Shown one piece after another: positions 14,311 through 53,671 of a stretch of 64,000 bases of DNA. Numbering within the stretch: the first letter of the stretch is position 1; the number at the start of each line of letters is the position of its first letter. The position numbers and the translations under genes were made by a program. This DNA is from Eledone cirrhosa (Eukaryota): NCBI GenBank assembly GCA_964016885.1, contig OZ024751.1, positions 3,658,001 to 3,722,000 on the forward strand, given 5' to 3'. The notes below the pieces were generated by a model. That model saw only the letters and a program-made list of their open reading frames with translations. It had not been told where the DNA came from and did no database searches.

Positions 14311-14680
14311 TATATTCTTAAGTACACATCGGCTGACTAGCCTAATTTGCATATACTCGCTCGGTATGCAAATTAGGCTAGTCAGCCGATGTGTACTTAA
14401 GAATATACTATATATTTTCAACCGTTCAACAGATTGGCAGAGATATACAGTCCTGATGAATGGTAATGATCCAGAAACATCTTGATTGTTCCTCAAGCCT
14501 GTGTTGAACAAAAGGGTGACGATCTGTCACCGACACAGCTTCAAATCGGGCCATTTCTTTTACAAATGAATCGAACATTATTCTTAATGTTCGATGTAAC
14601 CCATACGTACATATGTATATGTATATATGTGTGTATATATATATATATGTCTGTACGTGTTCATACTTACACACACACAC
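14311..14680 (+). mobile_element. Diverged monomer of the 466-bp hammerhead repeat with 5' fold-back
   Basis: 43-bp arms 14311-14353 / 14365-14407; atgcaaattaggct; degenerate hammerhead 14447-14489; gtgttgaacaaaagggtgacg shared with the array. Confidence 0.75.
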
Positions 14681-14682
14681 AG

Positions 14683-14764
<82 letters not shown>

Positions 14765-20125: not shown

Positions 20126-23100
20126 TTACAGATATATACTCAGAGTCGGCCCATTCACTCGGGCCATTCTTGCTTCTCTCACCCATCTTTCAACAAAATG
20201 CTGGGAAGAGAGCACTTCCTTCTCTACTCTGATTTTCCTTTTCAAATGAAATTTGAAAAAGTCAATCAGAGCATCACCGAAGAGGTAAGTGCTCGTCTTC
20301 AGCCCTTTCAAACGTGTCCACCATACTATCTCTTTCGCCATGGCCACCAGACAGATAAAAACTGCCTGCCCATCCCGGCTAAAGGAGGAGGGCGGGGCAA
20401 TCCTCACGATGGACTCAGATGATAGCTGGATCCGTCCTAAACGCGACAGCAGGTGTTCGACATAAACCCACAAGTCAGCAATTTTCGGACACTGGACGAG
20501 TGCGTGCAGGACGGTTTCGTCGCCCTGCGCGCATCTCGGACATGCCCGGCTGACGACACCTCCATGCCTGTAGAGTTTATCCCGAACTGGCAAGGCTCCT
20601 CGGTAGCACTGCCAGGCCAGAGATTTCTGGAAGTTGTCCATAGGCCCCGGCCCGAAAGTTCTTCCGAAGAGATTGGCTAGTTGATTTTCGTCGACGCCTA
20701 GAGTTTCCCCAAGTACGTCGTCGCTCTTCCCCTCCACTAATCCTCTATAGAACGCCGAGGTGGAGTTTCCACCGATCACATTGCCCGATTGGTCGAGGGC
20801 TGTGAGCGCCTGAAAACATTCCAGTCTCCAGGCGCTCCCTCTCGGTCTTCGCTTGACCCAGGACTGCAGCTCCGTCAAGGAAACGAGCTGGGGAAAAACG
20901 CGTCTAGCAAACGGCGACCACACCTGATCACCGTCGAGGAAGAGGTGGAGATGTCGTAGCCTGAGCGCGTGCCTGCGCATCATCAGCCACGGCATGCCCA
21001 GCCCTCCACGTAGCGGGTGTTGACAACAGATGGACCGCCTGACCATCGGAGCACGTCCCTTCCACAAAAAGCGAAAGAGCAAACGCTCCAGCGCAGTCAG
21101 GCGAGGCTTAGGACAAGGTACGACGGTTAGGCGGTAGCAGATGACAGACGCGATGTACGCGTTAGCCACCTCCGCTCGACCTTTCAGGGATAGCTTCCTC
21201 TCCGCCCATTTCTGGGTGAGAGAAGCCACCCTGCTCGTCACCTCGTCCCAGTTTTTGTCCGTCTGGAGGTCCGGACCGAACCAGACCCCTAGCAATTTAA
21301 CCGGTCCGTCCGTCCAGCGCCCGACGACGCTGTTGGACGGCATGGACCTGCCTCTCCAGGTGCCGAGCTGCAGGCCCACCGACTTTTCCTGGTTGATCAT
21401 TGCTCCTGTCACCGCTTCGTATTCTCTTAGTGTAGTGCCGATCGCCTCGATGTGTTTGGCGTTCGACACCACTACGGTGACATCGTCCGCATATGCTGAC
21501 ACGGATCTTCCGCATCCTAGTTCGCGCGGGACTCCCCTCAACGTCTCCAGTTTGTGCAGTAATGGCTCGAGAGTCAATACGTACAAGAGGGACGAGAGGG
21601 GACATCCTTGGCGGACCGAGCGCATGATGTTGAACGGTTCCGACAGGTGACCGTTCACTCTCACCACAGAGCAGATGTCGCTGTGCATGGCAGCGATCCA
21701 GCCTCTGAAGACGGGCCCAAAGCCAGCCGCCCTCAGGACTGCCGCTAGGTAACGATGGTCGACCCTATCGAAAGCTTTCGACTGATCTAAATTGATCAAG
21801 GACCCACCCGTGCCAGGTTCCTTAGCTACCCTCTCTATGATGTATCGCATGAGGTGGAGGTTGTCGTGGATGGATCTGTCGGGAATGGCGCATGTCTGCG
21901 CCTCTCCCACCAGACCACCAACGACAAGCGCCAACCTCTTTGCTAGCACCTTGGCCAAAATCTTGAACTCTGTGTTTAGCAGAGTTATGGGCCGGAAATT
22001 GTCTATGTTATCCCCCTTGTTCGGATCCTTTCTCAGCAGTGCCACCGCTCCTCGGCTCACAGAACTGGGAATTCTCCCGTTCTGTTGCCAGTTGCAGTAG
22101 ACGTCCGCCAAGAGGCCTCCGAACAAGTCTGGCATCTGTACGTAAAGTTCATAGGGCAGACCATCCAAACCAGGCGATTTACCCCTTGTGCAGCCAGTCA
22201 TTGCCTCCCTTACTTCAGCGGCTGTTATCGGCTTTTCGCAACACTTCGCCTCAGTGGCCGAGAGCCGCGGCAGTCCGTCGAGGTAGACAGTAAAGTCCAT
22301 CCCTCTACCCGGCCCCCCGCTGCCCCCGAACAGCTGAGCGAAGTGTCGCTGAAAAGCTTCACACATTTGCCCGGGATCGAGTAGCATGCGCCCGTCGTGG
22401 TCCACCAAAGACCGGATCGTGGCTTTGTTGCCACGACGCGCCTCCGCCACTCGGGCCCATTGAACGGCTTTCGTCCCCTCGTGTCTGAGAGCACGCACCC
22501 TAGCTCTGACAACGCAGCCTTCGTGCTTTGCATTGAAGAATTGGTCAAGGGCCAATTTCGCCGCAAGCACGTCGGTCGCAATGCCTTTGCTAAGCGCCTC
22601 GTCTAATTTTCTAACTAGTTCTCCCTCTGCTCTATTTTTCTCTATTGCTAAAGCCTTACTAAACCTAATCGATTCTATTCTAATCGCTCTTTTCAGAGCA
22701 AACCACCACTTGTTGTTGACGATGGCCCCCGTCAACGCCCGCTTAACTAGTTCGCTAATCCGGTCTCTGTAGGCCTTGCGCGCTGGTAAGGACGCGTTTA
22801 GCTTCCAGTAGCCGGGTCCTCGTCTATGAAGCCTATCTAAGTCAAGCACACAGGTCACGAATTTGTGGTCCGTGTAGCTGACTATCTTGAATTGTGGACA
22901 GCCTATGCTAGACCTATCTATTTCCCTACAAAATACTCTATCTAGATATGATCTGGATGACCCTATGCGGTTTGTCCAAGTCCACATTGGCACATTCGGG
23001 AAATCCAATCGGTACCTGTCAGACAGTTCAAAACGCCTGAGCAGGTTGGTGAGGCTCTTGCACCCTCCACCCCTATCCGCTAATCCCACACAGTCCCAGC

Positions 23101-23545
23101 GTGCATCTAAGATCCCGTTCCAGTCTCCCACTAACACTAAAGAGCGGGACGTTCCAAGAAAGGTCTCCAGACGCCGGAAGAAATCAGGCCGCCCTGCTCC
23201 TGTCGGGGCATAGACGGCCACTAGCCTGAAAGCTTGCCCGTCTCCGCTGGTCACGTCCAGCACCACCAGCTTACCCTCTGGGTCCAGGAAGATGGCCCGT
23301 ATGGCGAGATCCAAACCTCTCCGAAAAAGCACAGCAACTCCTCCACCCGATCCAGGACGGCTGGGAGATGCGTACACATCGTAGCCGCCGAAGATCGGTG
23401 CGAAGGCCCGTGCTTCGGAGATTCTGGTCTCGCTGATGGCCACTACATCTATGTTTAGTGACCTGAGGTCGTTGAGCAGGTGACCCTGCTTCCATGACGA
23501 CCCCAAGCCACGCGCATTTATGCTGCCTATTCTGAGTGAGGTCAT
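20126..23545 (-). CDS. LINE ORF2: APE endonuclease, reverse transcriptase, C-terminal Zn finger (1139 aa)
   Basis: SINARGL, VAVYAP, GDWN, YLDR, TDH; SPGLDG, FRPITLLN, DQSKAFDRV, QGCPLS, YADD; CPRC...HALVQC. Confidence 0.95.
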   Translation of the reverse strand: MTSLRIGSINARGLGSSWKQGHLLNDLRSLNIDVVAISETRISEARAFAPIFGGYDVYASPSRPGSGGGVAVLFRRGLDLAIRAIFLDPEGKLVVLDVTSGDGQAFRLVAVYAPTGAGRPDFFRRLETFLGTSRSLVLVGDWNGILDARWDCVGLADRGGGCKSLTNLLRRFELSDRYRLDFPNVPMWTWTNRIGSSRSYLDRVFCREIDRSSIGCPQFKIVSYTDHKFVTCVLDLDRLHRRGPGYWKLNASLPARKAYRDRISELVKRALTGAIVNNKWWFALKRAIRIESIRFSKALAIEKNRAEGELVRKLDEALSKGIATDVLAAKLALDQFFNAKHEGCVVRARVRALRHEGTKAVQWARVAEARRGNKATIRSLVDHDGRMLLDPGQMCEAFQRHFAQLFGGSGGPGRGMDFTVYLDGLPRLSATEAKCCEKPITAAEVREAMTGCTRGKSPGLDGLPYELYVQMPDLFGGLLADVYCNWQQNGRIPSSVSRGAVALLRKDPNKGDNIDNFRPITLLNTEFKILAKVLAKRLALVVGGLVGEAQTCAIPDRSIHDNLHLMRYIIERVAKEPGTGGSLINLDQSKAFDRVDHRYLAAVLRAAGFGPVFRGWIAAMHSDICSVVRVNGHLSEPFNIMRSVRQGCPLSSLLYVLTLEPLLHKLETLRGVPRELGCGRSVSAYADDVTVVVSNAKHIEAIGTTLREYEAVTGAMINQEKSVGLQLGTWRGRSMPSNSVVGRWTDGPVKLLGVWFGPDLQTDKNWDEVTSRVASLTQKWAERKLSLKGRAEVANAYIASVICYRLTVVPCPKPRLTALERLLFRFLWKGRAPMVRRSICCQHPLRGGLGMPWLMMRRHALRLRHLHLFLDGDQVWSPFARRVFPQLVSLTELQSWVKRRPRGSAWRLECFQALTALDQSGNVIGGNSTSAFYRGLVEGKSDDVLGETLGVDENQLANLFGRTFGPGPMDNFQKSLAWQCYRGALPVRDKLYRHGGVVSRACPRCAQGDETVLHALVQCPKIADLWVYVEHLLSRLGRIQLSSESIVRIAPPSSFSRDGQAVFICLVAMAKEIVWWTRLKGLKTSTYLFGDALIDFFKFHLKRKIRVEKEVLSSQHFVERWVREARMARVNGPTLSIYL

Positions 23546-23580
23546 GTTTAAAATAGAGTGGAAAAGATGGGAAAGACCAC

Positions 23581-25674
23581 TTACCGTACTTTTGGTAGAG
23601 GAGGGATGGTTTTTACATCCCTTTTCACTTGATCGTCTGGTGAAGGGACCGTTGAATCGTCCCTTCGGCTGGTCGTCGGCTCTTCTAAGAGTATGTCTGA
23701 GTATACTCTTCGATTGATGGTTCCTCCTAGGTCCCTGAAATCACCAACTGCGTTGGGGAATTTCGTTTTAATGTTTGTGTATTGTTTCTGTGCTATTTTT
23801 AGCAGTCTTATGTTAGTTGGCGTTTTGATTGGTGCTGGTATTATGTAGTCCTGTTGTGAAATGTCTGTGTGTTCAATTATGTAAGTCATTAGTTTCTTGT
23901 TGTGTGTATTTATTGCCGTGCATTTGTTTTTCTGGGGGTGGGGTGTGGTCCTGCTATTTTCTTGTCGTTGTTGCTGGGTGTGTGTGTTTTGTTGTTGTGT
24001 TTGCGATGTTGGTGCTTGTGGTGGTGGTGTTGAAGGTGTTGTTGGCGGTGGGGTTGTCGCCGGTGGTGATGGTGGTGCTAGTGTGGGTGGTGATGGTGTT
24101 GGTGTTGTTGCTGCTGTGGATCTCTTTGCAGTAGACTTTACCCTTTTCTCATTTCTTTCCTCCCTTTTCAAAGGCGACGATGCGCTGCTTCTGCGTTTGT
24201 GCCTTCTTGCGACCTTTTGCCATCCCTCTCCCACCTCACACTCCATGTCTGATTCTGTGAGGTCGGGGAGGGGTACCAGCTCCACTCTTTCACTTGTTGT
24301 TGTTGGTGATGTTTGCACTGGAGTCTCTGTTGCAGCTGCATTTGGTATTGCTGTTGTTGTTGTTAATATTTCCACTGCTGCTGCTGTTTTTGATTTCCGT
24401 GGCGTGGGTATGGGTGCCACGGACCTATCGTTCCTGGTTGCCGCTTGTCCTGTTGCTGGTAGCCGTGGAGCCGGATTCGGAAGGAGGGGGGTTTTCTCCT
24501 TTCTCAGGGTCTTCTCGTTGCAGAAGGCCCTGAGGTGAGTCTTCGATCCACAGCGAAAGCATTTCGGGCGTTTGCCCTCAACACTTATGGGCAGTTGAGT
24601 GCCGTTATCGAAGTCTATCACATCCGGGATAGCTTCGATGCACTCCTGGTTGGTTTGGATTAGCATCTCAATGGAGGAGCCGACCCAATCTTCTCTTACT
24701 TTTTTCTGTACTTGCAGTACAGTTGTTTTGTCCTCGATTCCGACGAGGACAGACGCGGCCAGCCAAGAAGGGGTCATTCCGGGGGGGACGTGGGTCAGTT
24801 TGACCCTCACAATTTTTTGCCCGCAGTAGGAGGGCACCAACACCATTTCTTCGCTCCTTAGGGTCACTACTGATTGGGCCTTTGCCTCCTGGGGTGTGGC
24901 AAAAAGTACGTCTACGGTGGCGTATTTTTTGCCTCGGGTGATGTGCGTTTTCCTCTGCCACACAGACCCCAAGGCTTTTTGTATTTGGGCCTCTGTGGCT
25001 CTTTCCACCCTACGGGATTTTGTACTTACTGTACGGTACGTGACCGTACAGCGCTCTTGGGTTTCGAAAAAATCTTTCGCTGCCTTGCAGATTGCTCGGT
25101 GTCCGTTCTTTGTCACCATCTTCTTCGCTTCCTCTAATTCCTCATTTGTTATGAGGATTGTTTCCAAGTTTTTCGCAATACCTGCAAATGAGATTGGTTT
25201 TTCTCTGCTGTTGTTGTTGTCGTCAGAGCTGCTGGTACTTTTGTTGCTGCAGGTACTACGACTACTGCCTCCGCCGCTGTTGCTGTGGTTGTTGTTGGTG
25301 TTGCTGCTGCTAATGCTGTTGTTGTTTATGCTGCTGGTGATGCTGTTGCGGCTGCTACTGTTGTTTTCATTGTCACTGTTGCTGTTGTTATTACGGCTGC
25401 TACTGCTATTATTCCTGACGTCAGACGAATGAACTGGGTTTTCGTATTTCCCGCACACCTGTTTCGTCGCTGTCGTCGTCGTCGTGGAGAAACCTTGCAC
25501 GCTTTGCACGAGACTTTTCTTTTCTTTCGTCGCTTGCGAAAGAGAAGGGAGGGAGAGAGACACATTTAAAGAAGGGAGGGAGAGAGACAATCTTCTCTCT
25601 GCTGTAGTGATGATTGAGGAAGAAGAAGACGGAATGAGTGGGAGTGACGTATGAAATTTCTTTTTGGTAGCCAT
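23581..25674 (-). CDS. LINE ORF1 gag-like protein with CCHC knuckle
   Basis: Open frame from ATG 25674 (MATKKK); CFRCGSKTHLRAFC; 35-nt spacer to ORF2. Confidence 0.88.
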   Translation of the reverse strand: MATKKKFHTSLPLIPSSSSSIITTAERRLSLSLPSLNVSLSLPSLSQATKEKKSLVQSVQGFSTTTTTATKQVCGKYENPVHSSDVRNNSSSSRNNNSNSDNENNSSSRNSITSSINNNSISSSNTNNNHSNSGGGSSRSTCSNKSTSSSDDNNNSREKPISFAGIAKNLETILITNEELEEAKKMVTKNGHRAICKAAKDFFETQERCTVTYRTVSTKSRRVERATEAQIQKALGSVWQRKTHITRGKKYATVDVLFATPQEAKAQSVVTLRSEEMVLVPSYCGQKIVRVKLTHVPPGMTPSWLAASVLVGIEDKTTVLQVQKKVREDWVGSSIEMLIQTNQECIEAIPDVIDFDNGTQLPISVEGKRPKCFRCGSKTHLRAFCNEKTLRKEKTPLLPNPAPRLPATGQAATRNDRSVAPIPTPRKSKTAAAVEILTTTTAIPNAAATETPVQTSPTTTSERVELVPLPDLTESDMECEVGEGWQKVARRHKRRSSASSPLKREERNEKRVKSTAKRSTAATTPTPSPPTLAPPSPPATTPPPTTPSTPPPQAPTSQTQQQNTHTQQQRQENSRTTPHPQKNKCTAINTHNKKLMTYIIEHTDISQQDYIIPAPIKTPTNIRLLKIAQKQYTNIKTKFPNAVGDFRDLGGTINRRVYSDILLEEPTTSRRDDSTVPSPDDQVKRDVKTIPPLPKVR

Positions 25675-25910
25675 GTTTTTTTGTTTAAAATGAAATTTTG
25701 AGTACAAAACCCCAATAACTGGTTATTTAACCCCGAAGGGCCAAATAACGGACAGAAAGACCCCTCTCACGAGGAGGAGGATGTCTTTATCAACAATTTG
25801 GTTCAAGTTTTAAACAATTTACAATTGTTTTAACGGTTAAAAATTACTATACCTTACAGAGCCGAGCCTCCGTCAACCATGGCATTCAATAATAATAATA
25901 ATAATAATAA

Positions 25911-28900
25911 CTGTGTGTTTGTTTGTTTATGTGTGTTCGTATACAGCGTGGTGATAATGCCACACAAGGGCCAAGTGGAACGGCGAATCCACAGATGGCT
26001 ATGTAACCATACATTCGCCAATCCTCGATAAGAGTGTTTAAATATCGAACATAAACAGTTCGAATAACGGTGAAATGGAGACTAGAACGTCATGTGACAG
26101 ACTCTCACCCAACAGGTGCCCCCTGGCTCAGCAGCAGGAACCTGACTGTCAACCAAATACTGCTGATGTTGGAGGAAGAAGAAGAAGGAAAGGGGCCAGA
26201 ACCAACTGGACGAAAGAATTGAATAGAACTGTTATGCAATGTTACCTGAAAAGTAACCCCAAGGAGAGGGGCTACAGGAGACGGATGCATAACATCTGGA
26301 ACGAGATTGGTCTATTTAAATTAGATGAACAAAAATTGGCCGGGCAGGCTCGGGTAATAAGAACTAATGGGTGGATAAGCGAGCTGGAACTGGAGGAACT
26401 GAGCAGAGAGAATGGCTTGGAGATGGCGGGTGTAGTATGCCAGACAAGCGAGCCAGTGGGAAATGAAGGTGAAGAGATCCTGAGAACGGAGGAACCACCC
26501 GAAGCAGACAATGATCTGAATACTGAGATAAATAATACCTGGAACAGAGATACGGCCACTGAGGAGATGAATGCTGACGGGCTAGGACAAGATTCGGTTG
26601 ACATCCTAAATTTAGTGGTAGATGAATTGAACAATGATAGTGGGAGACCTATGAACCTAAGATTTGTAGACAGGAAAAAGTTAACAGAAACAACAGCTAA
26701 GGTAAACAAAGTCATCCCATACCTTGAGGCGAGGAGCCTTCACCAGTGCAACAATATCCTCAAAGCAACAGCAAATACGGTGAGGAAACTACTTGGTATA
26801 AAAGCGAGAGGAAACAACAGACAAGAAAGAGCAGAGCCGTGGTGGAAGAAACGACTGAGTGGTCAAATCGGGGAAATGAGAAATGACATAGGAAAGCTTG
26901 AGTCACTACTGAATGGGACACTAAAAAACATAGGCACTAAAAATAGACTGGAAATAAAGTACAAAACTAGGAGGAAAAAGCTAAATATTATCATAGAGGA
27001 ACTGAAGCAACGCATTGTAGCAAAGAGTGCAAAAATCAGGCGATACGAGAACAGAGTCAGTCAGTATAAACAGAACCGCATGTTCGACAACAACCAGAAG
27101 ATGCTGTTTGGACAGCTTGAGGGGAAAGAAAGAGGCAACGACTTGATCCCTGGGGCGGAGCAAACTAAAACATTCTGGAGAGGAATATGGGAGCAGGATG
27201 TTAGACATAATGTCCAGGCAGGGTGGATTGAGACAGTACAGAGGGAGATCGGTGAGCAGGCACACCAACAAACTGATTTGAGTATCACAGTTGAAACTCT
27301 TAAGGGGCAGGCCAAAAAACTAACCAACTGGAAATCACCAGGCCCAGATGGTGTGCAGGGGTATTGGATTAAAAATTTAACATCCCTCCACCCGAAACTG
27401 ACGGCCATGTTCAATGACTGCTTGGTGTCGGGTGAGGTGCCAGAGTGGTTGACAAAAGGTACCACAGTTCTGATAATGAAAGACCGAATCAAGGGTAATG
27501 ATGTTACCAACTATAAACCTATCACATGTCTGTCCGTAATGTGGAAACTGTTGACGAGTATTGTGTCTGAGGAAATCTACCATCACCTCCACACAAACAA
27601 CTTGTTACCGGACGAACAGAAAGGATGCCGAAAGAAGTCACGTGGTACAAAGGACCAGTTACTTATTGATAAGATGGTAATGGGGAATTGCAGGAGGAGA
27701 CACACTGATCTTGCCATGGGATGGATAGACTACAGAAAGGCATTTGACATGGTGCCTCATTCTTGGATCACCAAAAGCCTGGAGATCTTCAGGGTGGCAG
27801 ATAACATCAGACAGTTGCTGGGCAGGAGTATGGGGTCCTGGGAGACAGAGTTGACATCAACTGGAGTATCCTTGGGAAGCGTGAAGATCAAGAGAGGTAT
27901 CTTCCAGGGAGATAGCCTGTCCCCTCTGTTGTTTGTCCTTGCCCTGATGCCCTTGACCATTATGCTGCGAAAAGTGAGAGCAGGATACAAGTTGGGAAAG
28001 GGAGAGCTTACCATCAATCACCTCCTCTTCATGGACGATCTTAAGCTCTTCGGGAAAAGTGAGAAGGAGTTGGATGTGCTTGTTGACACTGTCCGTATTT
28101 TCAGCAGTGATATATGTATGCAGTTTGGTATTAGTAAATGTGGAGTCATTGTGATGAGGAGGGGTAGGTTGAGCAGAAGTAACGGGATCCAGATACCAAC
28201 AGGTGAGATGATAAAGGAAATTGACTCTGAGGAAGGATACAAGTATTTGGGCGTTCTGGAGGCTGATGGCATAAAGAACAAAAAAATGAAGGAATTGTTA
28301 AGAACTGAATACATTCGGAGAGTAAGGAGCGTATTGAAGTCACACCTGAACAGCAGAAATGCCATAAGCGCAGTAAATTCCAGAGCTGTGTCTATTATTA
28401 GGTACAGTGCGGGAATTCTGAGATGGAATGTTGCTGAACAAAAAGAAATGGATAGGAAGACTAGGAAGCTATTGACTATCTACAACATGTTCCACAAGAG
28501 GAGTGATGTCGATAGACTCTACCTAAGGAGATCTGAGGGTGGAAGAGGTCTTATCAGCATAGAGGACTGTGTTCAGATGGAGAAAAACAACCTATACAAA
28601 TACGTGACCTATAGTAAGGAGCCAATGCTCAGAACTGTACTGAAGGAGGGGACAGTAGGCCAGGGGATGTCCAAGGAGGAAATAACATCAAGGAGGAAGA
28701 GCAGCCTTAAGGGAAAATCCCTTCATAGTACCTTCTTTGAGAAAACTGAATTTAGAGATCCACAGACATGGAACTGGTTGAGAAGAGGAGACCTCAAAAA
28801 GGCTACAGAAGGAATGCTAATGGCTGCGCAGGAGCAGGCCCTCAAAACGAAGTGGTTGAAGCACCATATTTACAAGGAGGAGGCTAGCCCACTGTGCAGG

Positions 28901-29545
28901 ATCTGTGGAGAGAGAGAGGAGACTGTGGCTCACATTGTGTCCGAGTGTAAACACCTAGCCCAGACCCACTATAAGGGCTGGAGACACGATGTGATGGGCA
29001 GCGTGATCCACTGGCACCTGTGCAAAGTAAACAATTTACCACATTCTGAGAAATGGTATGAGCATAGGCCAGAGGCGGTGATGGAGAACAATCAGGTGAA
29101 GGTGCTGTGGGATTTTAGGATACAGACGGACAAAAAAACTGGAACACAATAGACCTGACCTGGTGGTTGTGGACAAAGAAAAAAGATCGTGTCTGATTGT
29201 GGATGTGGCCTGCCATTTCGACACGAGAGTGCAAGAGAAGGAGAGGGAGAAAATTAACCGATACCAGGACCTAAAGTGGGAGGTGAAAATGATTTGGAAC
29301 TGCCATGAAGTCAAAGTGATCCCGATTGTCATAGGCGCACTGGGGACTATCTCCAAAGGTTTCCAGGGATGGTTAAAGAAAATCGGCCCCTTCACGCTTT
29401 TTGGAACGCTTCAAAAGGCATGCTTGCTGGGAACAACAAGAACCCTCCGATACGTCCTGAATATCTGAGGCTGCAGGTAGTGGCTTGATATTCATTCCAA
29501 CGGACTTTCCAGTTAACCAACATCAATGACTGAGATTCAAGGAAT
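25911..29545 (+). mobile_element. R4/Dong-clade non-LTR retrotransposon, apparently full length, in (TAA)n
   Basis: Single RT-RLE ORF; AAT runs at 25888-25910 and 29552-29585. Confidence 0.9.
26075..29468 (+). pseudogene. RT + CCHC + restriction-like endonuclease ORF with one +1 frameshift in the A7 run 29132-29138
   Basis: KSPGPDG, RGTKDQLLIDK, QGDSLSP, HLLFMDD, CRIC...HIVSEC, RHD, then shifted HNRPDLVVVD...D...EREKINRYQDL. Confidence 0.9.
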
Positions 29546-32740: not shown

Positions 32741-32780
<40 letters not shown>

Positions 32781-32784
<4 letters not shown>

Positions 32785-33365
32785 GGAAAAAATGAAACGA
32801 AATTTCATTTCCCACTCTTAGTACGGCTGTTACTTAAATATAAGTATGTACACAAATATAAGTATGTACACAAATATAAGTATGTACACTTAATACGGGA
32901 TGTTTGTAAACAAACATCCTGTATTAAGCCGTAGTGTCTAGCAACCATCGTTGCTCGGTTGTTCAACACTGACAAAGGAACGCTGTACTAGTTTCAAGCT
33001 TATTAGCTATCGTCAGCAACGTATACCTTCCTGCCAGATTGTTGAACGTATATACTTACCTTATGCATATTATAGGCATAAGGTAAGTATATACGTTCAA
33101 CAATCTGGCAAGAAGGTATACGTTGCTGAAGATAGCTAATAAGCATGAAACTAGTACAGCGTTCCTTTGTCAGTGTTGAACAAACGAGCAACGATGGTTG
33201 CTACACACTACGGCTTAATACGGGATGTTTGTTTACAAACACACCGAGCATTATAATAAATGTTCGGTGAATCCATACGTACATATATATATATGTGTGC
33301 ATGTATGTATATATATATACATACTACTGTGCATCTGTATACATATATGTATGTACGTGTACATA
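32781..33365. mobile_element. Head-to-head inverted dimer of a relative of the 466-bp hammerhead repeat
   Basis: Palindrome centred near 33070; hammerheads at 32980-33022 (-) and 33120-33162 (+); 32781-32850 matches the array 3' end. Confidence 0.85.
33120..33162 (+). ncRNA. Minimal type I hammerhead
   Basis: acgttg-CTGAAGA-tagctaataagcat-GAAAC-ta-GTA-cagcgt; mirror copy has CTGACGA. Confidence 0.8.
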
Positions 33366-51124: not shown

Positions 51125-51339
51125 GTGACGAAACATAAGTCAATTGCATGAACTCATAATCCTTTATTTACTGCTATATATATATATTTCGATGATAGCC
51201 ATTGAATGGCTATGACCTCATCAGGTCATAGCCATTCAATGATGAGGTCATAGCCATTCAATGGCTATCATCGAAATATATATATAGCAGTAAATAAAGG
51301 ATTATGAGTTCATGCAATTGACTTATGTTTCGTCACTAT
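51122..51339. repeat. Fold-back palindrome with hammerhead core at the inversion point
   Basis: Arms of about 100 bp; (CT)GATGA-ggtcatagcc attcaat ggctatcatc-GAAA-tatatata. Confidence 0.85.
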
Positions 51340-51544
51340 TATAACTCCGGAACTTTTATCTTCGTTGAGTGCTCCCTATCCGCATACTGAAGTACTGGAT
51401 TTTACCAACACTCACTTTCTTGCTTATATATATAAATTAGCCGTCGAAACGGCTTGAGCTCAGCTGTCGGGGTCTTACTGGTTCCTATATATATATATAT
51501 ATATGTGATGTTGCTTTGGCTATCAATATTAATGTTATTGGGTA

Positions 51545-53561: not shown

Positions 53562-53671
53562 ATAGGAAAATGTTTGACCCCGACGGCAGAGCTCAAGCCG
53601 TTTCGACGGCTATTTTAAAATAGCCGTCGAAACGGCTTGAGCTCTGCCGTCGGGGTCAAACATTTTCCTAT
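53562..53671. repeat. Perfect 110-bp spacerless palindrome
   Basis: 55-bp arms centred on tttt|aaaa at 53616/53617. Confidence 0.92.

Follow-up and report, generated by a model that had tools for sequence, protein, structure and literature searches.

The window, by which we mean the whole 64-kb stretch of DNA analysed here, is animal-like DNA with many TA microsatellites, and near 14 kb it holds a repeat copy whose forward part begins at 14354/14355, 130 nt before a predicted ribozyme cut site, and ends near 14671 (Table 1). As revealed by blastn, this copy matches the unit of a 466-bp tandem array in the same window at 71% over 170 nt (E 1.8e-15), and nhmmer matched it to the 466-bp unit with an E value of 2.5e-18. 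Further, the local alignment of its core with the array unit scored 143, compared with a maximum of 43 among 500 dinucleotide shuffles; the alignment on which the sequence-only reading had made the kinship depend is thus significant, and the module order of the 466-bp unit is, as that reading held, present in the 14-kb copy. The homologues of the copy in the window are the array unit and a pair of sequences at 33 kb, giving three family loci in 64 kb, and a covariance model built from all four window sequences detected no additional family copy in the window. The copy had also been described as a diverged monomeric cousin of the array: it is a relative of the array, with an overall identity of 63% to the unit, but it is not a whole monomer, as its upstream part is missing. 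That part is present in related contigs, which have loose ends before 14355. Judged by its sequence, the 14-kb copy (14355-14671) genuinely belongs, in a decayed state, to a family of non-LTR retrozymes that is hammerhead-bearing, non-coding and high-copy.

Table 1. Features of the 14-kb copy and of the related loci (window coordinates)
Feature	Position	Strand	Remarks
Inverted copy of 14365-14407	14311..14353	-	second octamer 14345-14352; runs into TA-rich flank
Spacer of fold-back	14354..14364	+	element-derived; aligns with array unit 5' of octamer
Conserved 24-nt block	14365..14388	+	octamer ATGCAAAT (14366-14373) and 4-bp hairpin
TATATA	14409..14414	+	in all three lineages, at -75/-77/-69 from cut site
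Type I hammerhead, long extended helix I	14424..14509	+	predicted cut after 14483
Outer stem	14424-14430/14503-14509	+	hammerhead of 14-kb copy
Inner helix I	14447-14452/14484-14489	+	hammerhead of 14-kb copy
Core CUGAUGA; helix II; GAAA	14453-14459; 14461-14472; 14474-14477	+	hammerhead of 14-kb copy
Helix III loop; U16.1	14478-14481; 14482	+	hammerhead of 14-kb copy
6-bp hairpin	14515..14531	+	both-sides change in 3 of 6 pairs versus 33-kb copy
Decayed short hairpin	14553..14567	+	intact form, ending ACAAAC, in array and 33-kb copies
11-bp hairpin	14570..14595	+	common to 33-kb plus arm; one both-sides change
TA-rich internal segment	14596..14671	+	copy end at CATACTTACA
Microsatellite flank	14672..14761		(CA)n then (TA)36; likely target of insertion
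Related minus-strand copy, plus-strand inverted arm	32779..33365	-	ends at unit position ~310
Related array	41718..48311	+	13.7 x 466-bp and perfect 228-bp inverted arm; ends at unit position 310

Other elements share the window. An apparently intact two-ORF element at 20126-25722 on the minus strand, which we take to be L1/Tx1-like, stands back to back with a second non-LTR element at 26042-29468 on the plus strand, whose ORF continues in another frame near 29100-29152. A 61-aa protein piece from the window has a 64% match in an Octopus sinensis gene model, a weak pointer to an octopus, and another window element has a 54% protein match in Penaeus indicus; the host may be an invertebrate. ARAGORN found no tRNA gene in the window, and a tRNA-derived head of the element was rejected on this ground. 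Pattern scans for relatives returned no match in two metagenome scans and none in prokaryote genomes, and seven pattern matches in viral contigs were rejected as chance because the hammerhead helices were absent on inspection.

The 14-kb copy has the core elements CUGANGA, GAAA and U16.1-H17 arranged as in type I, with an open helix I; at H17 it has U where the array has A. In all window copies the type I hammerhead forms the tip of a long helix I composed of four segments. Pairing across the four window sequences amounted to 94.4% of 108 cells, a level reached by 1 of 500 shuffles and far above the 26-45% of slid controls, and the covariation score of 0.198 on the same sequences was reached by 2 of 500 shuffles. 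Both-sides changes affect 4 of 27 pairs, a count that 29 of 500 shuffles reached and that, taken alone, does not go beyond them. These four sequences represent three lineages only, because two of them are the near-identical arms of one locus. A leave-one-out covariance model scored the 14-kb copy at 48.7 bits (E 1.5e-12), compared with 25.5 bits (E 5e-7) for a sequence-only model, the structure gain for the training sequences in that covariance model being only ~12 bits. The claim that stem I differs completely from that of the array yet still pairs was half right: it does still pair, but ACAGTC and ACGGTG, like GATTGT and CATCGT, share four of six letters per strand. Between array and 14-kb copy, two of the six helix I pairs change on both sides with Watson-Crick pairing kept (G-C to A-U and G-C to C-G).

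Rfam gave no match at the gathering score in the whole window and no hammerhead among 52 weak matches (E<=10) over the 14-kb copy; on the array unit, HH9 scored 18.5 bits (E 0.079), below its gathering score of 52. Matches to microRNA and snoRNA models were rejected as sub-threshold matches to a generic hairpin or a TA repeat. The predicted monomer folds bury the hammerhead core in the array, the 33-kb copies and the 14-kb copy, and because the array and 33-kb monomer folds sequester the core too, folding alone does not mark the 14-kb copy as dead.

The state of the 14-kb copy was instead read from its subfamily, as represented by contigs of three runs from one sample and one study that align to 14311-14612 at a likeness of at least 80% (1,137, 1,162 and 1,093 contigs, respectively). 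One contig is identical to the 14-kb copy over 158 nt, at a depth of 11, where contig depth is not copy number. Among the variants listed, the majority letter differs from that of the 14-kb copy at 14381, 14404, 14434, 14443, 14461, 14470, 14481, 14500 and at more sites downstream; the majority has G at 14443 (90-93%), G at 14461 (96-97%), C at 14470 (93-95%) and G at 14481 (97-98%). At 14443, 14461, 14470, 14481 and 14500, each private letter of the 14-kb copy breaks or weakens a pair that the majority keeps. Helix II is fully paired in the majority as GGGU/ACCC, compared with AGCU/AGCU in the array (two both-sides changes), but has U.C and G.U in the 14-kb copy, and the helix I extension has A.C in place of the majority G-C. 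The helix III loop is CAUG in the majority and CUAG in the array, both palindromic, whereas in the 14-kb copy it is non-palindromic, the stem III mismatch pointed out earlier being real (C14478 opposite C14481). The predicted self-pairing of the loop hexamer changes accordingly, from -4.6 and -4.8 kcal/mol for majority and array to +2.8 kcal/mol for the 14-kb copy. Intact helices II and III or a palindromic loop are thus found in the subfamily majority and missing from the 14-kb copy. In the available text of PMC4209133, the dimer-acting form of the hammerhead has a 6-bp helix I, a 4-bp helix II, a helix III of 1-2 bp and a palindromic loop; the majority and the array show this published dimer-acting architecture (PMC4209133; PMC7229834).

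Because its private changes break the helix II pairing and the palindromic loop of the majority, the 14-kb copy is likely dead; its suspected inactivity is supported by the predicted loss of the loop palindrome and weakening of helices I and II. U17 may be subfamily-wide, since no change at 14483 occurs among the variants listed; GUU is a slow cleavage triplet. Selection on structure is visible between subfamilies because majority and array keep both the helix II pairs and the loop palindromes, and the sequences suggest that structural selection acted on the subfamily, not on the 14-kb copy. The earlier view that covariation supports structural selection therefore stands for the both-sides changes between subfamilies but not for the 14-kb copy itself, which lost pairs uncompensated. 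The covariation is suggestive and does not amount to a formal test, as it comes from three lineages and the contigs of one study. Tandem arrays are shown for the related 466-bp locus, not for the subfamily of the 14-kb copy. In that subfamily, an upstream hairpin CGGC...GCCG (one variant) corresponds to UCGGU...ACCGA in the array, a possible further both-sides change, with 14355 at its 3' foot.

The 5' end of the copy forms a perfect 43-bp hairpin, as the sequence-only reading had it (arms 14311-14353 and 14365-14407, spacer 11 nt); this hairpin does not lie upstream of the octamer, however: the octamer forms part of the right arm and has an inverted counterpart in the left one. The private G14381 of the copy is likewise mirrored, as C14337. 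The hairpin consists of a 5' part of the element and an inverted duplicate of that part, and each arm holds an octamer. The perfect 43-bp stem, the two octamers and the unexpectedly identical arms might all suggest that the hairpin is itself functional, as a small-RNA precursor or a double-octamer regulatory site. We regard this as very improbable, because the two other loci have fold-backs made from different parts of the unit, the matches to microRNA models are of a generic hairpin kind (60 compared with a gathering score of 139 bits) and no coding gene is recognised nearby. All three loci have a fold-back, and its place in the unit differs from locus to locus; we therefore prefer to read the hairpin as a product of insertion and not as a functional cap. 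Its arms are identical at 43 of 43 positions. Given the 7 of 135 sites at which the copy departs from the majority, ~4.5 arm mismatches would be expected if all these changes had followed insertion (P ~0.01); the decay is therefore not simply post-insertion. One possibility is the recent insertion of an RNA that was damaged beforehand, the other a later homogenisation of the arms; homogenisation is not general, as the 33-kb arms (9-nt spacer) differ at 6 sites over about 166 nt. In two of the three contig runs, a contig has a further fold-back with another arm, likewise starting at 14355 (its joint connects 14355 with 14405), which hints, from one further locus only, that 14355 is a recurrent 5' end.

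The array has 13 complete hammerhead motifs at 466-bp spacing and a GC content of 0.36, and an ORF search inside its unit found none of at least 120 aa. Its forward copy starts at 41944, the first base after the predicted cut, with 2 nt of microhomology to the inverted arm. Such a start is what a cDNA running off a ribozyme-cut 5' end, and then folding back, would be expected to leave. The 5' junction as a whole (41718-41963, with the perfect 228-bp fold-back) is likely an in vivo cleavage footprint. At the 3' side, the right end of the array and the main arm of the 33-kb locus lie at unit position ~310, and the inverted arm of the array and the 14-kb copy end ~248 from the cut site, within 1 nt of each other. 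All family ends adjoin TA-rich or microsatellite sequence; no direct terminal repeat was found around the 14-kb copy. Five perfect non-microsatellite inverted repeats of at least 25 bp occur in the window, and three of these are the family loci (spacers of 9, 11 and 18 nt); a fourth, the 47-bp perfect fold-back at 51177-51286 within TA repeats, has a minimal hammerhead-like motif of another kind at its centre. Among other observations on inverted sequence, a perfect 55-bp palindrome without spacer lies at 53562-53671, with a related single arm near 51440-51490; and the 33-kb minus arm lacks part of the unit at 32840-32900, where there is a local inversion and an 18-bp triplication.

These junctions bear on whether the family is satellite DNA spread at the DNA level, by unequal crossing over or circular DNA, with the hammerhead a passenger and the hairpin a replication fold-back. 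The array units are near-identical, a variant shared by units 5 and 10 suggests duplication at the DNA level, and a private letter present in both arms of the 14-kb copy fits a late DNA-level event or gene conversion. Nevertheless, this explanation is improbable, given that the 5' junction of the array coincides with the ribozyme cut site (a chance of ~3 in 466 when the microhomology is allowed for), that ends recur at two unit positions with a 5' inversion at all three loci and that helices I and II and the palindrome of the loop all show both-sides changes. The variant of units 5 and 10 (44476 and 46806), five units apart, is the sole one among the 13 units, and its sharing could be due to duplication of a higher-order unit, to a multimeric template or to the assembly itself.

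The best reading, which we hold to be likely, is that the 14-kb copy is a 5'-truncated type I hammerhead repeat, probably inserted by a Penelope-like reverse transcriptase, that has probably lost its ability to cut. According to the available text of PMC8557442, Penelope-like elements carry inverted 5' copies and a tail that is confined to one end, and they insert at (TA)n; the corresponding hallmarks are present here: an inverted 5' copy at three of three loci, ends at ~248 and ~310 and (TA)n flanks. Because the junction hallmarks would be the same, the copy could also be the solo, 5'-truncated pseudo-LTR end of an autonomous Penelope-like element and not an independent retrozyme. Such an origin would agree with the Penelope-type fragments in the window and with the relatedness of Xenopus retrozymes and pseudo-LTRs, as stated in the accessible part of Li et al. 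2026 (bioRxiv 10.64898/2026.07.22.740005). We nonetheless find it unlikely: the 466-bp unit is repeated head to tail 13.7 times and contains no ORF of at least 120 aa, the contigs continue 5' of 14355 with sequence like the array unit and no ORF, a reverse transcriptase ORF adjoins none of the three loci and the hammerhead has a helix III loop, unlike the minimal form. No autonomous partner with family sequence is found within the 64-kb window, which contains GIY-YIG fragments below the Pfam cut-off. Two identical 68-nt stretches in inverted orientation (6807, plus; 8802, minus), each with an octamer, surround a GIY-YIG fragment and are unrelated to the retrozyme block. Approximately 10 minimal hammerhead-like motifs (4157, 10163, 31806, 48803, 52482, 53335, 53818, 55513, 62306 and 62761) belong to at least three sequence families, some near GIY-YIG fragments, and are probably Penelope pseudo-LTRs.

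A reading of the 14-kb copy as a truncated retrozyme suggests the following cycle. Tandem units would be transcribed, possibly from an internal putative promoter with the octamer, and neighbouring hammerheads would pair through the palindromic helix III loop and then cut; by analogy with known retrozymes, the unit-length RNAs may circularise. A Penelope-type protein would nick a TA microsatellite and copy the RNA from one of two preferred sites ~60 nt apart, and the 3' end of the cDNA would fold back and prime an inverted copy, such as the 43-bp hairpin at the 14-kb locus. As background, reverse transcription of one Penelope-like element was shown in vitro to start internally at two sites and not to depend on hammerhead activity (PMC11167929, available text), and in Xenopus eight of nine predicted retrozyme dimers were uncut in vitro (bioRxiv 10.64898/2026.07.22.740005, accessible part). 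Mobilisation of animal retrozymes by Penelope is, in that same part, a published inference from co-occurrence and pseudo-LTR phylogeny.

Within the conserved 24-nt block, 22 of 24 letters are the same as in the array unit, compared with 63% overall, which gives a binomial P of 0.002 for one window and a weaker value once several windows are allowed for; the 3' strand of the outer stem is conserved to a similar degree. The octamer lies at -118 from the cut in the 14-kb copy and at -119 in the array, and is thus fixed in two lineages; the 33-kb copy is truncated before it. Contig depth, which is not copy number, is 30-38 thousand over the block (peak at 14355-14387) compared with 5-12 thousand over the hammerhead core, a peak consistent with a block shared across subfamilies. 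No octamer variant is among those listed in the contig runs, and the next base varies in 13-15%. Outside the family, octamers in the window are at chance level (6 compared with 6.9 expected) and have unrelated flanks. From these sequence patterns the block may be a candidate promoter, and it could equally be an RNA element because of the small hairpin inside it. The four T4 runs of the array unit make Pol III read-through less likely. According to the available text of PMC7761336, retrozymes seem to be without promoters and without motifs that would point to a helper. We found no description of an octamer-bearing retrozyme outside newts, or of a cephalopod retrozyme, in a literature whose coverage was incomplete and whose supplementary lists may name the family.

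The kind of element is already known, and the single 14-kb copy is an ordinary dead repeat; the interest lies at the family level, in the covariation of the loop palindrome, the Penelope-type junctions, the start at the cut site and the conserved octamer. Three loci have Penelope-type junctions, one of these loci begins at the cut site, and a putative promoter block is kept across subfamilies; the identity of the helper, the dependence of cleavage on dimers and self-driven transcription can therefore be put to the test in a single system. A more far-reaching proposal, which we find doubtful as a whole, is that the family carries a captured snRNA-type promoter (octamer block at -118, TATATA ~20 nt behind) and a dimer-only hammerhead whose loop palindrome covaried from CUAG to CAUG, that it is an invertebrate counterpart of newt satellite 2, independent or anciently inherited, and that its junctions are a direct record of a Penelope reverse transcriptase that ran off the end of an RNA cut by the ribozyme and folded back.

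Like the metazoan non-LTR retrozymes, the family is non-coding, has a GC content below 50%, occurs in tandem and dispersed and carries a single type I hammerhead in each unit (Cervera and de la Pena 2020, PMC7229834; PMC7761336), and it shares with them monomer derivatives and co-occurrence with Penelope-like elements (the same two sources and bioRxiv 10.64898/2026.07.22.740005; available text of all three). It is unlike them in its 466-nt unit, internal TA-rich segment and conserved octamer block, and its fold-back junctions have no counterpart described for retrozymes in the available text of these three sources. Like the Penelope-like elements and their pseudo-LTRs, the family has an inverted 5'-truncated copy, a one-ended tail, (TA)n flanks and a type I hammerhead (PMC8557442, PMC11167929 and PMC4209133, in the available text), but it is without ORF, its hammerhead is canonical, not minimal, and its tail is ~60 nt compared with the published 30-40 nt. 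The one-pair helix III with a palindromic loop is tied to amphibians in the accessible part of PMC7229834, where axolotl HHR_Amex1 has the same single-pair helix III and palindromic tetraloop and HHR_Amex2, like the array, has U.U at the base of helix II; the present family combines the one-pair helix III with a mismatch at that base, U.U in the array and A.A in the 14-kb copy. Newt satellite 2 is transcribed from an internal snRNA-type promoter (PMC2220036, available text). The octamer at a fixed position in the present family recalls newt satellite 2, whose promoter has an octamer and a proximal element, the likeness being drawn from descriptions of that repeat and not from newt sequence; unlike the newt and axolotl repeats, the family has the loop letters CUAG/CAUG and no identified proximal element.
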